Made by a program: the position numbers and the translations under genes
Notes under the pieces: generated by a model
What the model saw: the letters and a program-made list of their open reading frames with translations, nothing else
Told to the model about the DNA's origin: nothing
Databases searched by the model: none
IMG/VR virus record: IMGVR_UViG_3300008107_000028
Location: 34,195-98,194 of that record
Direction: 5' to 3' (one strand)
Length of the DNA stretch: 64,000 nucleotides
DNA from: a virus
Taxonomy: Duplodnaviria; Caudoviricetes
Shown here: in pieces, positions 12,844-45,122 of the stretch
Position numbering within the stretch: position 1 is the first letter of the stretch
How the letters are laid out: the number at the start of each line of letters is the position of its first letter

Positions 12844-13035
12844 ATGATCATCATCGAAGTAAACAAAGAAAAAAACATTGAGTCCGCACTCAGGACTTAT
12901 AAAAACAAAGTTCAAAAGTCGAGACAAATACAAGAACTTAGAGATAGACAGACATACAAAAAACCCTCAATAAAAAAGAGAGAACAGGTTTTAAAAGCTA
13001 TCTATGTACAAAAAGTAAAAAACGGTCTTAATTAA
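12844..13035 (+). CDS. rpsU: Ribosomal protein bS21 (phage-encoded)
   Basis: MIIIEV..NIESALRTYK.K....ELRDRQTYKKPSIKKR...KAIY matches the Bacteroidota bS21 pattern; TATATTTG promoter upstream. Confidence 0.93.
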   Translation: MIIIEVNKEKNIESALRTYKNKVQKSRQIQELRDRQTYKKPSIKKREQVLKAIYVQKVKNGLN

Positions 13036-25550: not shown

Positions 25551-26615
25551 GTGTTATCAATATTAGAAAAATATTATCAAAATGGTTTGGTTTTAAAACA
25601 AACTCATCCGACTCTTGATCTATCTATATGGAACTATTCCCCAAAAGTTCAGTACGAAAAATTATGGGATGATGTCACTAAAATTTGTAGAGGTTTAGTT
25701 ACAAACTCCGAAGGAAAAATAATCGCAAGACCATTTAAAAAATTTTTTAATTACGAAGAACATTCTGTGAATGAAATTCCAAATGAATCATTTGAAGTTT
25801 TCGAAAAAATGGACGGTTCATTAGGAGTTGTTTTTTATTATCACGGAGAATGGCACATGGCAACAAGAGGATCATTTATCTCCAATCAATCTCTTGTTGG
25901 TCTCAAAATGTTAAAAGAACTTTCGATTTTAAAAAATTATCCATCAACGGGTTTAAATCGTAATTGGACTTATCTATTTGAAATAATATATAAAGAAAAC
26001 AGAATCGTTTGTGATTACGATTTTGAAGGTTTGGTTTTACTTGGTGCATATGAAACAGAATCAGGTAATGAAATTGATTTTGATATATTAAAACATAAAG
26101 TAGGTCTTTTTAATGATGTTAGAATAGTTAGAAAATATAATGGTATTAATGATTTCAAAAAATTAAAAGAAACGATTGCCGATGATCGAGAAGGTTATGT
26201 TATTCGTTTTAAAAACGGATTTAGAATAAAAATAAAAGGTGAAGAATATATTCGTTTACATAGAATATTAACAAATATATCCAGTAGAGATATTTGGGAA
26301 CACCTTAAAGATGGAAAATCCTTAGATGAAATTCTTGATAAGGTTCCCGATGAATTTTATAATTGGGTTAAAGAAACTAAAAATAACTTAAATGATGAAT
26401 TCACAAAAATTGAAAATGAATATAAATGGATTTACAAGATTATTACAAGATCATCAAATTCAACAGAAAGAAAAGTTTTTGCAGAATATGCATTGAAATA
26501 TAAACATTCATCTATATTATTTTCAATGTATAATAAAAAAGATTATAAAAAAATAATTTGGAAACTATTATATCCAAGTTACACAAAACCATTTAAAAAT
26601 GATAAAGAAAATTAA
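25551..26615 (+). CDS. RNA ligase (T4 Rnl1-like)
   Basis: 'CRGLV', 'RPFKKFFN', motif I 'EKMDGSLG', 'EGYVIR', 'KIKG.EY'. Confidence 0.9.
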   Translation: MLSILEKYYQNGLVLKQTHPTLDLSIWNYSPKVQYEKLWDDVTKICRGLVTNSEGKIIARPFKKFFNYEEHSVNEIPNESFEVFEKMDGSLGVVFYYHGEWHMATRGSFISNQSLVGLKMLKELSILKNYPSTGLNRNWTYLFEIIYKENRIVCDYDFEGLVLLGAYETESGNEIDFDILKHKVGLFNDVRIVRKYNGINDFKKLKETIADDREGYVIRFKNGFRIKIKGEEYIRLHRILTNISSRDIWEHLKDGKSLDEILDKVPDEFYNWVKETKNNLNDEFTKIENEYKWIYKIITRSSNSTERKVFAEYALKYKHSSILFSMYNKKDYKKIIWKLLYPSYTKPFKNDKEN

Positions 26616-37700: not shown

Positions 37701-37754
37701 AAAATTTCCTTTTTATATAAATATTTCTTATATTTTCAATATAAATTGATTTTT

Positions 37755-38534
37755 ATGACTTTTAAACACCTTACTGACTTAGAAATCCAACAAATGACAT
37801 TTGATTGGAGATATAGAGGTTTCACAATTCTTGAGTTACTAACAGAAGAAGAATGTGACGAAATAAATGATGAACTCGAACGTCTTAGAGAAAAACGTAT
37901 GGGTACAATCACTGAAGACGGTAAACCATGGGGAGAGTGGGATCCATTTGCTTATCCACATAAGTTATCAGATAAACTTGAAAAACTTTTTGCTCACCCT
38001 AAATTAATTGAAGCGTGTGAGTTTTTAATGGAAGGTGAATTAATGGGAATGCAAAGCTGGGCATATTTCAAACCCCCTGGTCAATTAGGTAGAGATCAGC
38101 ATCAAAACGCGTTTTACACAGGTTGTAAACATAATGAGATTATCAACACCGCATTAGCATTAGATAATCACGACGCCGCAAATGGTGCCGTTTGGAATTA
38201 CGAAGGTTCCCACAGATTACCAACATTACCAATTGAAGTAGATGAAGAAAGAACAAAAACAAACCCAACATTTTGGAGAAATGAAAGAGGTAAACCTTGT
38301 GTGATGCCAGAAGGACATGATTTTAGAAAAGTTGAAGGTGTTTTGAAAAAAGGTCAATGTGTGTTGTTACATTCACACTGTGTACATGGTTCTGAACCCA
38401 ACAATTCAAATAGAATGAGAAGAAACTTCTTGGGTGGATTCTTGAAAAAGGGTGCGTACTATAATCAAGGTTCACACATGAAAAGAGAACCAATTGATAT
38501 GTATGAATTGAGAAAAAAACATTGGGGAGAATAA
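37755..38534 (+). CDS. Phytanoyl-CoA dioxygenase (PhyH)-family Fe(II)/2-oxoglutarate oxygenase
   Basis: 'YFKPPG...HQN..Y', 'ALD...NGA....GSH', 'HGSEPNNSNRMRR'; the usual HxD is HQN here. Confidence 0.85.
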   Translation: MTFKHLTDLEIQQMTFDWRYRGFTILELLTEEECDEINDELERLREKRMGTITEDGKPWGEWDPFAYPHKLSDKLEKLFAHPKLIEACEFLMEGELMGMQSWAYFKPPGQLGRDQHQNAFYTGCKHNEIINTALALDNHDAANGAVWNYEGSHRLPTLPIEVDEERTKTNPTFWRNERGKPCVMPEGHDFRKVEGVLKKGQCVLLHSHCVHGSEPNNSNRMRRNFLGGFLKKGAYYNQGSHMKREPIDMYELRKKHWGE

Positions 38535-39286: not shown

Positions 39287-39326
39287 TACATTTTTTATTT
39301 TAAGAAAATTTTTATATTTTTGTATT

Positions 39327-39340
39327 GTTCTTTGAAATAA
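39327..39340 (+). promoter_or_regulatory. boxA-like antitermination element upstream of the tRNA cluster
   Basis: GTTCTTTGAAATAA, repeated at 39444; GTTCTTTGAA at 41546. Confidence 0.55.
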
Positions 39341-39346
39341 TGAATT

Positions 39347-39433
39347 GCCTTGGTGGTGGAACTGGTAGACACGCAGGACTTAAAATCCTGTGAACCGAAA
39401 AAGTTCGTGCGGGTTCGATTCCCGCCTGAGGCA
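39347..39433 (+). tRNA. tRNA-Leu(TAA)
   Basis: Cloverleaf with anticodon arm CAGGA-CTTAAAA-TCCTG, long variable arm, GGTTCGATTCC. Confidence 0.95.
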
Positions 39434-39471
39434 CAACACTATCGTTCTTTGAAATAAAGGAGAAATAAACT

Positions 39472-39717
39472 ATGGATATACTATCATTTATTTTAGGAAT
39501 GTCCGTTGTGGTGGTTATCGCAGTTGCGGTAGTCGCTGTAATGGCCTTTGTTAGGGTAAAAAAACATAACAAAGATATTGAAGATATACGTCAATGTATG
39601 TCAAGAGATTATGAATATCAAAATAGAGAGCGTGATAATATTGTTCAAGACATATACAGAACATTAGATTCACGACTTGATAAACTTGAAAGTAGAATAA
39701 TAAGCCGTAAGGTATAA
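39472..39717 (+). CDS. Small protein with N-terminal TM and coiled coil, inside the tRNA cluster, with a strong SD
   Basis: AAAGGAG 9 nt before ATG; flanked by a 19-bp inverted repeat (39435-39454 / 39733-39751). Confidence 0.75.
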   Translation: MDILSFILGMSVVVVIAVAVVAVMAFVRVKKHNKDIEDIRQCMSRDYEYQNRERDNIVQDIYRTLDSRLDKLESRIISRKV

Positions 39718-39755
39718 CAATTAAATAAAAACTTTCAAAGACGATAGTGTTAAAT

Positions 39756-39827
39756 GGTCCCATAGTTAAACGGATATAACTACAGATTTCTAATCTGTTA
39801 TTCGTGGTTCGATTCCACGTGGGACTA
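39756..39827 (+). tRNA. tRNA-Arg(TCT)
   Basis: Anticodon arm ACAGA-TTTCTAA-TCTGT; acceptor GGTCCCA/TGGGACT. Confidence 0.95.
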
Positions 39828-39875
39828 CAATCGTTAATTTAAACGATAATTCAAATTATCGTTTAATCTTATGAT

Positions 39876-39947
39876 GTCTCCTTAGCTCAGCGGTAGAGCA
39901 TCTCGCTGTTAACGAGAGGGTCCGAGGTTCGAAACCTCGAGGGGACG
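39876..39947 (+). tRNA. tRNA-Asn(GTT)
   Basis: Anticodon arm TCTCG-CTGTTAA-CGAGA; discriminator G. Confidence 0.95.
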
Positions 39948-39951
39948 CATA

Positions 39952-40025
39952 GGACCCTTAGCTCAGTTGGTTAGAGCAAATGACTCATAATCATTAGGTC
40001 CACGGTTCGAGCCCGTGAGGGTCCA
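39952..40025 (+). tRNA. tRNA with CAT anticodon, likely tRNA-Ile2 (lysidine type)
   Basis: AATGA-CTCATAA-TCATT; acceptor GGACCCT has the C4-G69/C5-G68 TilS determinants; no initiator features. Confidence 0.85.
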
Positions 40026-40082
40026 CAAAGGACTTTAATGAACGAAGTACAAGTTTGGAGTAGGTTAGTCCCACCTACAATC

Positions 40083-40154
40083 GCTCAGTTCGTCTAATGG
40101 TTAGGACGTGTCCCTTTCACGGACAAAATACGGGTTCGACTCCCGTACCGAGTA
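40083..40154 (+). tRNA. tRNA-Glu(TTC)
   Basis: TGTCC-CTTTCAC-GGACA; one A-C mismatch in the acceptor stem. Confidence 0.9.
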
Positions 40155-40168
40155 CTATAAAAATTTTT

Positions 40169-40535: not shown

Positions 40536-40787
40536 ATGTTATCTACTTATTATGTTATTTGTGTAATTTATTGTTTTTATCAATTGAGTAATCGTTATAG
40601 AAAAGATATGATGCCGGGAGGTTTGGGTGTCACACCTGCGATGGACGCAATTATGGTTATTATTTTAGGTTGGGTGTTGGCTCCTATTGACTTTTTTCTA
40701 ACATGGGTTAGATTATATAAAGAAGCTGAAGAGGCAAGAAGGAGAGGAAATAAACAGATTTTAAATGAAGACGATGAAAAACTTTAA
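40536..40787 (+). CDS. Small membrane protein
   Basis: Two hydrophobic segments. Confidence 0.6.
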   Translation: MLSTYYVICVIYCFYQLSNRYRKDMMPGGLGVTPAMDAIMVIILGWVLAPIDFFLTWVRLYKEAEEARRRGNKQILNEDDEKL

Positions 40788-41235
40788 AACATTATATGGA
40801 ATAAAAATTGATAATTTAATTGATTATATTAAGGACTACATAAAAGATAGAAATAATATTGAAATTTTGATAGGATCAGATTCACAATGTTTTAGAAATA
40901 ATAAAACTGTTTATGGTGTTGTGATTGCATTATACACAGCAGGAAAGGGTGCTCATGTTTTATGTAAAAGAGAAAATGGTCCAATGGAATATAATACACA
41001 AAAAAGACTTTTAACTGAAGTTTGGAAATCTGTTGAAACCGCCGAATTCTTAAAAAATAATGGGTTACCTAAACCAACTTGGATTGATATTGATTTGAAT
41101 CCAGATCCAAAATACAAATCCAACTCTGTCCTGAGACAGGCGGTAGGTTTGGTAGAAGGTATGGGATATAAAGTAAGATATAAACAATTAGGTGCAATGT
41201 CAACATATGCTGCAAATCATTTAGTTAGAATTTGA
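40765..41235 (+). CDS. RNase H-like YkuK (DUF458) family protein
   Basis: 'IGSDSQ', 'RLLTEVWKS.E.A', 'IDIDLN', 'YAANHLVR'. Confidence 0.8.
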   Translation: MKTMKNFKTLYGIKIDNLIDYIKDYIKDRNNIEILIGSDSQCFRNNKTVYGVVIALYTAGKGAHVLCKRENGPMEYNTQKRLLTEVWKSVETAEFLKNNGLPKPTWIDIDLNPDPKYKSNSVLRQAVGLVEGMGYKVRYKQLGAMSTYAANHLVRI

Positions 41236-41489: not shown

Positions 41490-41566
41490 AAATTTTGTTT
41501 TTGTAAAAAGTTATTGTATATTTGTAAAACAATCGGAAACGATAAGTTCTTTGAATCTAAAATATT

Positions 41567-42366
41567 GGCCGCCTATGGTCGATTAAAATAAACCATGAAA
41601 GTGGTATAAAGTGAATCTGAATTGGTTATTTAGGTTTGCGGTTTCCGAAAGGGAACTCGAGTAGGCAAGCGGGATATCGTCTGACCTTAAGTACTGAGGG
41701 TAACACTGTAGGGAACGTGGTTAGATGACCGAGCGATACCGGTCGTTTGGTTGAGGTGGGAACACCAATAAGAATAACTCGATAGAATTATTGTAAGAAG
41801 TGTAGTTATCCAACTACACAATTGCGAAATTCAATACAATGGGGATCTTAAAACCGAAAGGTATGTTCATGTACAGGTGGTGCTGTTATGATCCTTGATT
41901 TGAATCTACCAAGGTTCTTATCTTGAAGGAATCCAAAAGTATGGAGGCAGGGATGTCTCAGAGGGTAGTTTAGTATCGTGTCATCCAAAAGATGGCATGG
42001 CTGGTTGACGGACCACTACCTTCCAAATCGGTAACTAACTTTGTTAATTAAGGTTTAACAAACTCAAAATTAAACAAGGAAAAGTGTCCGTCAGTCGTTA
42101 GAGACAGGTGACTACATAGTCGTGAGGGGTTCACGGCCACAAAGGGTCCCAAACCCAATGTGAATTACAAGAAAGTTCTCTAATCCCGCAAGGATGAGTT
42201 GGGGTGGCAACCTCAAAGAGTAATCAGTATTGTGAGAGTATCTAATGACTTAAGGATTGGTTAATCTAATTGACCGTCACTGGTTGGTACAGTTCAAAAG
42301 ACTGTGGATAAGAAAGGAAACAATAATCTTTCTAAAGTCAACTATTAAAACTTGTAATCTCAGAGG
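41567..42366 (+). ncRNA. GOLLD-like giant structured ncRNA (~800 nt)
   Basis: ORF-free, GC-elevated, many GNRA-type hairpins; segments I recall as GOLLD-like (GGCCGCCTATGGTC, TACTGAGGGTAACACTGTAG, ACAGGTGGTGCTG, GAAAAGTG, TGTAATCTCAG); near tRNAs in a phage. Confidence 0.75.
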
Positions 42367-44716: not shown

Positions 44717-45122
44717 GGGGGTGCTTGGATTTGACGGGCGTTGATATGGTAAATGGGCACGTAGTCGGATGTCATCTACGACTTAAATCTATGGTGATAA
44801 AAATTAAACGGCAACGTTTACAACAACATGGAAGTATCAGGTCTTCTTGCAACTTCTAAAGTGGCTGCCTAATTAGGTCCCCACTAACGGGTCGATGGAC
44901 ACATAACCTTGGAACAGAAGTCCCTACGGTGTGATACCACCAAAAGAGTGTCAGGGAGTTGTTTTCGGTTCAATCCTATTTAATAGGAACCGACCACAGT
45001 TGTGAGTTCTGATGGAAAAATAAGAACCCTCTATTTGTCAGTTGAGAACTAACTGAATAAACGTGTAGTCCATTTATGATATGGCGGTTCGGACAAGGGT
45101 TCGACTCCCTTCACCTCCACCA
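44717..45122 (+). ncRNA. ssrA: tmRNA
   Basis: 5' GGGGGTG / 3' CACCTCC-A-CCA with G3.U70; GATTTGAC D-loop analog; T-arm GGTTCGACTCC; tag ORF at 44810-44872 GNVYNNMEVSGLLATSKVAA*. Confidence 0.93.

Follow-up and report, generated by a model that had tools for sequence, protein, structure and literature searches.

A host-type boxA in a predicted long-range RNA helix around a small membrane-protein gene of a Bacteroidota huge phage

Antitermination through boxA is textbook knowledge for ribosomal RNA (rRNA) operons and for the lambdoid phages of enterobacteria. Here we analyse a phage locus in which a boxA sequence forms part of one strand of a predicted long-range RNA helix. The helix, 17-21 bp long, closes a cassette of about 320 nt with a gene for a protein of 81 amino acids, ORF81, among transfer RNA (tRNA) genes. 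The cassette lies in a 64,000-nt stretch of DNA (hereafter the window; G000:C1:34195-98194 of the 98,194-bp IMG/VR record IMGVR_UViG_3300008107_000028, CheckV completeness 29%), and positions refer to the window.

In rRNA operons, boxA has two sites, the leader and the 16S-23S spacer; 16S maturation requires a leader-trailer helix longer than 17 bp, whose formation tethered boxA has been proposed to promote (PMC10250234, partial text). The phage locus resembles these operons: alongside the boxA sequence of its host phylum it has a long-range helix, covarying and at least 17 bp long, that would form only once a whole gene has been transcribed. It differs in that the helix encloses a translated messenger RNA (mRNA) and sits in a phage tRNA array. 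Because the helix encloses a protein-coding open reading frame (ORF), we regard it as leader-trailer-like in its working and not as a member of that family.

In Escherichia coli suhB, a boxA 6 nt away from the Shine-Dalgarno (SD) sequence enables Nus factors to repress translation; a similar repression in the lambda N leader is modulated by RNase III processing (PMC5725501, partial text). The gap between boxA and SD in the phage is 0-4 nt. Unlike the phage locus, suhB has no complementary downstream arm and does not lie among tRNA genes, and its outcome, termination by Rho, would harm the phage tRNAs. The nutL/N leader of lambda is similar to the phage locus in carrying a host-type boxA on a phage transcript, upstream of an SD-led gene, with a double-stranded RNA structure that modulates the outcome (PMC5725501). 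In lambda, however, this structure is in the leader, whereas the helix described here closes a whole gene. No boxB hairpin or N-like protein was identified in this phage, and its host belongs to the Bacteroidota and not to the enterobacteria.

In Flavobacterium johnsoniae, ribosomes without bS21 favour mRNAs with a strong SD, depletion of bS21 raises the translation of strong-SD reporters, and the bS21-responsive gene rpsU characteristically pairs below -13 kcal/mol, over up to 13 bp (PMC9976891, partial text). ORF81 resembles flavobacterial rpsU in having a strong SD, which is rare where ribosomes normally ignore SDs, and in having bS21 at hand, here encoded by the phage. Its SD is shorter and weaker (7 nt, -9.1 kcal/mol), the gene is not bS21, and 3 of 23 relatives do without the SD.

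Processing of tRNAs frees the mRNAs that they flank in the tRNA punctuation of mitochondria and in the T4 tRNA cluster with its interspersed small RNAs and ORFs. The RNase III sites of phage T7 are local hairpins between genes, and end stems stabilise the RNA. The ORF81 cassette shares with these systems the direct flanking of an mRNA by tRNAs and end stems that would stabilise it, but they have no boxA and no helix that pairs both ends of the mRNA. In the literature consulted, mostly titles and abstracts, we found no boxA in Bacteroidota phages or in phage tRNA/GOLLD operons, and no leader-trailer helix wrapped around an mRNA. Each part of the locus has known counterparts; the combination and its context are new.

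The long-range helix and its boxA

The first-pass annotation of the window, made from its letters alone, had described a stem of 19 bp with one bulge between tRNA-Leu and tRNA-Arg. We found both arms where it had placed them (Table 1), with 19 bp and a single bulged U. The 5′ arm begins 1-3 nt past tRNA-Leu and the 3′ arm stops 4 nt short of tRNA-Arg. Folding, which the annotation had proposed as a check, bore the stem out: the helix was part of the minimum free energy and the centroid folds of both a 321-nt and a 581-nt stretch (z = -6.3 and -6.1, respectively), and none of 100 shuffled sequences folded as well. In the 581-nt fold, the helix and the two tRNAs formed side by side. The duplex energy of the two flanks (RNAduplex) was -26.0 kcal/mol, a value reached by 3 of 3000 segment pairs of the same geometry in the same 98-kb record.

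Relatives of ORF81 were present at 33 IMG/VR loci (46-77% identity), which gave 23 distinct cassette sequences, the window included; all fractions of 23 refer to these. The annotation had named absence from homologous loci as a reason to give its reading up. The helix was present in all 23 sequences, with 17-26 predicted pairs, that is, at least the ~17 bp of a leader-trailer helix, and with energies of -22.7 to -33.0 kcal/mol (RNAduplex per sequence). In our alignment (A1), 8 of its 19 pairs had changed on both sides and 93.8% of the cells were paired. For the whole structure, 92.0% of the cells were paired, compared with 38-55% when the partners were slid by 1-3 columns, and none of 500 shuffles matched this. 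The figures for the outer helix are conservative because the 3′ arms of three sequences, L021, L029 and L034, are misaligned in A1; their duplexes, computed one by one, pair too. Examples of compensatory change, with the 5′ arm given first, are AACGCTACCG with CGGTAGCGTT in L008, CACCACCG with CGGTGGTG in L021, ATATTATCG with CGATAATAT in L029, and AGTTACCG with CGGTAACT in L034. This pattern of substitution indicates selection on the long-range stem as an RNA structure.

The inner half of the 5′ arm is what ties this helix to rRNA operons. Its core, CGTTCTTTG (39443-39451), was identical in all 23 sequences. As it is invariant even where the 3′ arm complements it incompletely, it is constrained as a sequence in its own right. 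The 3′ arm varies, with wobbles and a shifting bulge, yet keeps its pairing with the invariant boxA.

The likeness of the 5′ arm to boxA, remarked on in the first-pass annotation, held in a direct comparison with the boxA of Bacteroidota rRNA operons. We surveyed 31 Bacteroidota 16S loci with the motif GTTC[T/A]TTGA. Of the 23 loci with a leader of at least 200 nt, 18 had it in the 400 nt upstream of 16S, and of the 30 loci with at least 700 nt of spacer, 28 had it in the 16S-23S spacer. Typical host forms were AAGTTCTTTGAAATATTGAG in the leader and GTTCTTTGACATATTGGGAAA in the spacer. The spacer form is nearly identical to the phage copies before tRNA-Leu, and in relatives the copies upstream of tRNA-Leu also share the downstream extension of the host sequence (GACATATTGGGAAAA, GACATTGTGAGAAAA). 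Only the ORF-linked copy is followed by AAGGAG.

The placement of boxA in the phage is also that of a transcription signal. The 98-kb record had 5 matches to the motif where 2.3 were expected. Three of the five, all on the + strand, fall into a stretch of 2.3 kb: one precedes tRNA-Leu, one ORF81 and one the GOLLD RNA. These positions recur in relatives, among them that of the copy just upstream of tRNA-Leu. All three are on the sense strand; those before tRNA-Leu and GOLLD come after promoter-like boxes, and the third is between tRNA-Leu and tRNA-Arg. In the relatives, TATATTT(G/T/A/C) occurs 7-10 nt upstream of the first boxA copy; we call this box promoter-like by what we take to be the Bacteroidota -7 consensus, TAnnTTTG. 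Boxes of the type found at the tRNA-Leu operon also precede GOLLD, the transfer-messenger RNA (tmRNA) and the phage bS21 gene. Sequence and placement together indicate that the 5′ arm carries a genuine host-type boxA, a putative NusB/NusE site.

Upstream of GOLLD, a TATATTTG promoter-like box (41516-41523) is followed by a short hairpin, AUCG-GAAA-CGAU, and by a boxA of host type at 41546. In many relatives a conserved GGCCGCCTATGGTC follows this boxA, so the start of GOLLD RNA is probably about 400 nt before the region matched by Rfam. We considered GOLLD as a second case of boxA in a helix and rejected it: the boxA region can pair with 42257-42308 (-31.5 kcal/mol), but among the 7 relatives tested boxA had no conserved partner.

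The strand on which the structure acts is indicated less by the outer helix than by a hairpin inside the coding region. G.U pairs occur in the outer helix of 9 of the 23 sequences, 8 of which fold better as the + strand, and over all the sequences the + strand was the more stable in 13, which is mildly informative. The internal hairpin counts about 8 G.U pairs among its 19; 98.9% of the cells were paired over the 23 sequences, and 6 pairs had changed on both sides. For example, the synonymous third position of a Ser codon covaries with the third position of a Met/Ile codon (alignment columns 87 and 126; UA in 8 sequences, CG in 7, UG in 4 and AU in 3). Because so many of its pairs are G.U, it would form only in + strand RNA, and it is this hairpin, judged by its sequence, that fixes the strand. 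It is a clean example of selection for RNA structure overlaid on the code for a membrane helix. Possible roles are those of a second site for a double-strand nuclease, a protein-binding site, or an element that paces translation.

Table 1. Features of the ORF81 locus and of other parts of the window
Feature	Position	Strand	Description
Promoter-like -7 box	39311-39322	+	TATATTTTTG; tRNA-Leu operon
boxA copy 1	39327-39340	+	GTTCTTTGAAATAA; exact 14-mer repeat of 39444-39457; before tRNA-Leu
tRNA-Leu(UAA)	39347-39434	+	ARAGORN; Rfam tRNA 56.6 bits, Rfam end 39433
5′ arm	39435-39454	+	AACACTATCGTTCTTTGAAA; outer half AACACTATCG, inner half boxA core
boxA copy 2	39444-39455	+	GTTCTTTGAAAT; embedded in 5′ arm
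SD sequence	39456-39462	+	AAAGGAG (7 nt); 9 nt before ATG
ORF81	39472-39717	+	81 aa; small membrane protein, N-terminal membrane helix, charged helical C-terminal half
Internal hairpin	39503-39544	+	39503-39521 pairs with 39526-39544; loop AGTT; inside membrane-helix coding region
3′ arm	39733-39751	+	TTTCAAAGACGATAGTGTT; pairs with 39435-39454
tRNA-Arg(UCU)	39756-39828	+	ARAGORN; Rfam 63.6 bits
PhyH-type dioxygenase	37746-38534		Upstream of tRNA block; PF05721, E 3e-20
RNase H-like protein	40765-41235		Downstream of tRNA block; PF04308, E 1e-17
GOLLD RNA	41961-42366	+	Rfam 317.7 bits
tmRNA	44717-45122	+	Rfam 110.7 bits; tag peptide GNVYNNMEVSGLLATSKVAA
Phage bS21	12844-13035	+	63 aa; PF01165, 44.3 bits
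T4 Rnl1-like RNA ligase	25551-26615	+	PF09511, 76.7 bits over 25686-26249

ORF81 and its translation start

The variability of codon positions in ORF81 followed the order 3>1>2 throughout, and its indels were in frame; ORF81 is therefore a real protein gene. A wider protein search gave 310 clusters, on contigs of up to 636 kb, with no Pfam family. A transmembrane segment and a coiled coil had been predicted for the product at first pass. The former is clear, as a single membrane helix at about residues 4-27 (Kyte-Doolittle maximum 3.01, residues 6-24). The latter is plausible at most: heptad periodicity is modest, with a fraction of 0.43 hydrophobic residues at a/d positions compared with 0.31 overall. 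The membrane helix is followed by RVKKHNK and then by a charged half with the conserved motif LDSRLDKLE; 46% of the residues in the C-terminal half are charged, and none is Pro or Gly.

Searches for a relative of known function gave little. All Pfam matches were below the cut-off, the best PHROG match (E 3.3e-4) was to a family without an assigned function, the best match in the Protein Data Bank (PDB) had an E of 0.47, and the Atlas search gave only unnamed viral clusters at 0.92-0.94. Named leads, the Mu-like releasin family DUF2730 among them, were dropped, as their Atlas score of 0.82 is below the meaningful level.

Contigs of relatives from two metatranscriptome runs of two studies (X6 and X7; 4 of 16 listed runs were examined) cover parts of ORF81. 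These runs are available as contigs, from which ends, strand, level and circular junctions cannot be read and in which uncovered parts carry no meaning, and we take them as a weak hint that ORF81 is transcribed. In all 13 sets of RNA data with a match, the share was small (0.05-0.09). Contigs of relatives in run X1, which is probably DNA, also lie over parts of ORF81. A joint of 39431 to 39801 in X1 (side of 21 nt) connects the similar T-arms of two tRNAs, and we do not count it as evidence.

The strength of the SD, which the first-pass annotation had singled out among the genes of the window, was borne out by the whole record. Paired with the 3′ tail of 16S rRNA (...ACCTCCTTTCT, read from the Bacteroidota loci L054 and L055), the ORF81 SD gave -9.1 kcal/mol, stronger than in any other of 104 ORFs in the record (mean -0.8, next best -8.7 kcal/mol). 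Among the 96 ORFs of at least 90 aa with an ATG start, an SD core of at least four nucleotides at -18 to -4 was present in 5, against a background of 6.0%. The start of the coding region was unusually conserved as well: the third-position entropy of codons 1-9 was 0.18, compared with 0.86-0.93 elsewhere in the gene.

Conservation of the SD, which that annotation had proposed to check along with that of the stem, was incomplete. It was present in 20 of the 23 sequences, 8-11 nt from the ATG and with pairing of -7.3 to -12.7 kcal/mol, and was replaced by AT-rich sequence in L007, L016 and L023. In these three sequences, boxA lies 13-15 nt from the ATG. L023 is part of a 97%-complete genome of 324 kb that encodes bS21. 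None of the ORF81 SDs pairs below -13 kcal/mol, as is characteristic of rpsU (PMC9976891, partial text). The context that the annotation had assumed stands: the host belongs to the Bacteroidota, whose ribosomes normally ignore SDs, and bS21 is among the genes of the phage. The link to bS21 is weakened because the SD is absent in 3 of 23 sequences, one of them from a bS21-encoding genome, and because it is weaker than that of rpsU. From these comparisons, translation gated by bS21 seems a reasonable idea, if a somewhat weakened one.

At the stop codon of ORF81 (39704-39713), a small hairpin GCC-GUAA-GG(U) can be drawn, with loop GUAA, GAAA or GUCA in relatives; for its 3 pairs the support is too weak for calling a structure.

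Readings of the locus

We put at roughly 0.5 the probability that the locus is a module of the rRNA-operon style, boxA plus leader-trailer helix, placed around a phage mRNA. Such a module suggests that the phage borrows the transcription and processing machinery of host rRNA for an mRNA.

In this module, host RNA polymerase would initiate at the host-type promoter, and the nascent boxA would recruit host NusB/NusE (S10) and other Nus factors, giving resistance to Rho over the untranslated tRNA operon. The boxA after tRNA-Leu would reload the complex once tRNA processing has removed the first boxA, like the spacer boxA of rRNA operons. About 290 nt later the 3′ arm would emerge and pair with the boxA strand, in the manner of the leader-trailer helix around 16S rRNA. 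The helix would mark the ORF81 mRNA as a separate unit, to be excised by RNase P and RNase Z at the adjoining tRNAs, by host RNase III, or by both. It would bury both RNA ends and so should stabilise the mRNA; it would also hide boxA, so that the released mRNA would no longer be bound by Nus factors and would be free of a Nus-mediated block to initiation. The SD, unique in the phage, could then drive or gate the translation of ORF81. Searches of three records (that of the phage, that of the 97%-complete relative and that of a 46%-complete relative) gave neither NusB nor RNase III, and a Bacteroides control of the RNase III search did show the host enzyme. Host factors would therefore be used.

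Several points weigh against this account. In the host rRNA operons examined, boxA lies just 5′ of the leader-trailer helix, whereas in the phage it lies inside it. NusB/NusE binds single-stranded boxA, so that binding and helix are mutually exclusive, and the order of events, Nus binding and then the helix, is one that we infer. Cleavage by RNase III, a discrete processed RNA and stabilisation of the ORF81 mRNA are proposed by analogy. In the window the first boxA lies just 117 nt upstream, which makes reloading seem in part superfluous, and 6 of the 23 loci have no tRNA at the 3′ arm, so antitermination into downstream tRNAs cannot be the sole purpose. The account leaves the conserved hairpin within the coding region unexplained, and no Pfam, PHROG, PDB or Atlas family with a function points to what ORF81 does.

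If an rRNA-style module is nevertheless the right reading, it would explain how huge phages spare long arrays of untranslated RNA from Rho. It would provide a natural case of a leader-trailer helix that acts on an mRNA. It would also be a conserved object for testing the use of sequestered anti-SD beyond rpsU, and the role of phage bS21 in Bacteroidia.

The main rival, which may also be a refinement of the rRNA-style module, is a Nus-dependent translational switch after the precedents of suhB and the lambda N leader (PMC5725501, partial text). In such a switch, the chief task of boxA, 4 nt upstream of the SD, would be to keep ORF81 untranslated for as long as the Nus-modified polymerase has the RNA looped; the 3′ arm, acting as an anti-boxA, would set the mRNA free for translation, whether RNase III cuts or not. 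The position of boxA, which ends 1 nt before the SD or, in the SD-less relatives, lies close to the ATG, would suit it. The low third-position entropy of codons 1-9 suggests that the initiation region is constrained at the level of nucleotides, and the 3′ arm retains its pairing with boxA by differing means across lineages. Against it, if repression led to Rho termination in the manner of suhB, the tRNAs downstream would be lost as well, an outcome that seems to work against the phage. It overlaps with the rRNA-style module and does not exclude it; as an explanation of its own, we consider the switch possible but not likely.

How the stem relates to the tRNAs bears on the further readings. Of the 23 loci, 16 have a tRNA next to the 5′ arm, 17 next to the 3′ arm and 11 next to both. 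The cassette mostly keeps its place between tRNA-Leu(UAA) and tRNA-Arg(UCU), and a minority of relatives have somewhat different neighbours. By this distribution, the stem goes along with ORF81 and not with the tRNAs. A seventeenth case at the 5′ arm may be L035, in which tRNA-Leu(UAA) (about 2186-2962 of that locus) is apparently split by an insertion of about 700 nt with a group I intron (RF00028, 59 bits, 2702-2890); ARAGORN made no call there, and both the 5′ and the 3′ end of the tRNA are recognisable.

The helix could be nothing but a structural insulator, which would sequester the 320-nt spacer from misfolding with the tRNAs and leave clean substrates for RNase P and RNase Z; boxA would then serve the operon alone and its position in the arm would be incidental. 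The close spacing of the arms to the tRNAs, similar in 11 of the 23 loci, and the coexistence of tRNAs and helix in the 581-nt fold are in line with this idea. We judge it unlikely, as the helix is kept where a tRNA is missing next to one arm or to both (L007, L008, L013, L016, L021, L024, L025 and L034) and the 3′ arm is selected for pairing with boxA in particular.

A broader variant has the mRNA packaged like a pre-rRNA. Through boxA, the RNA would be tethered to a Nus-modified polymerase that chaperones the helix, and the excised, stem-closed RNA, possibly sealed by Rnl1, would bear the one strong SD of the genome and for that reason be open only to ribosomes whose anti-SD is exposed, in a channel switched by phage bS21. 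ORF81 would then be made before, or apart from, bS21-loaded ribosomes. This variant also seems improbable.

Its last steps are shared with the model of the first-pass annotation, in which RNase P and RNase Z excise the cassette, a ligase circularises it, and translation is gated by bS21-lacking ribosomes with a free anti-SD. Release by tRNA processing is in keeping with the 11 loci in which tRNAs adjoin both arms; in the rest the stem is independent of flanking tRNAs, 12 of the 23 loci lacking one at one arm or more. Such release is therefore not the whole story. RNase P and RNase Z would leave a 5′ phosphate and a 3′ hydroxyl, which would suit an Rnl1-like ligase chemically, and the helix would hold the excised ends 5-6 nt apart. 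A T4 Rnl1-like RNA ligase gene, the one finding that speaks for circularisation, is present in the phage and in the 97%-complete relative. Against this, the ordinary role of T4 Rnl1 is tRNA repair, no RtcB was found in the three records searched, and no back-joint is listed among the RNA data, which as contigs cannot reliably show back-joints or ends. The proposed gating has for it the strongest SD of the record, the phage bS21 and the response of strong-SD reporters to bS21 depletion in F. johnsoniae, and against it the SD-less sequences, L023 with its bS21 included, and pairing energies above those of rpsU (PMC9976891, partial text). Taken as a whole, we regard the model as very unlikely.

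Least credible is a small mobile DNA element, similar to miniature inverted-repeat elements, that would have carried ORF81 into tRNA arrays and whose terminal inverted repeats would be the arms: a small ORF does lie between inverted repeats and the neighbours are somewhat different in a minority of relatives, but the Leu(UAA)/Arg(UCU) site is largely conserved instead of variable, the arms evolve unequally (an invariant 5′ core and a variable 3′ arm), G.U wobbles are tolerated in the + strand sense only, the flanks have no target-site duplication, there is no transposase, and boxA accounts for the 5′ arm.

Phage, host and neighbouring genes

Gene content and the relatives of the locus indicate that the window is a fragment of a huge phage of about 300 kb that infects Bacteroidota and encodes its own bS21. 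Contigs with relatives of the locus are 298-334 kb long, and the GC content of the window is about 30%. All 17 confirmed genomic relatives of the phage bS21 (50-58% identity; from 147 pattern matches) were in Bacteroidota, and bS21 was also encoded in the records of both relatives searched. The phage bS21 gene has no SD, has a TATATTTG box upstream and is on the strand opposite to its flanking genes.

These properties fit a group of bS21-encoding huge phages of freshwater Bacteroidetes with genomes of 293-331 kbp, 31.0-33.7% GC and 5-25 tRNAs, in which bS21 lies on the opposite strand inside a block of structural genes (PMC9723584, partial text). The words 'boxA' and 'tmRNA' occur 0 times in that paper.

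RNA genes cluster around the cassette, and every one of them is on the + strand: five tRNAs (39347-40155), GOLLD RNA and tmRNA. The tmRNA has a TATATTTG box about 9 nt upstream and no boxA. For the 254-aa upstream neighbour, a search of the viral contig collection gave no relatives, so the order of genes was followed by way of ORF81, and blastn of the phage collection gave matches of tRNA size only, with no homologous locus.

Between tRNA-Arg and tRNA-Asn (39830-39875), nested inverted repeats, ATCGTTAATTTAAACGATAATT and AATTATCGTTTAATCTTATGAT, are 82% complementary and form a hairpin in the 581-nt fold. Upstream of the phage genes, TATTTAT was present within 30 nt of 25 of 96 ORFs of the whole record, against a background of 0.8%. 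It most often ends 4-6 nt before the ATG, and ORF81 is without it. This motif could be a phage-specific promoter that gives nearly leaderless mRNAs, or a motif of the initiation region.

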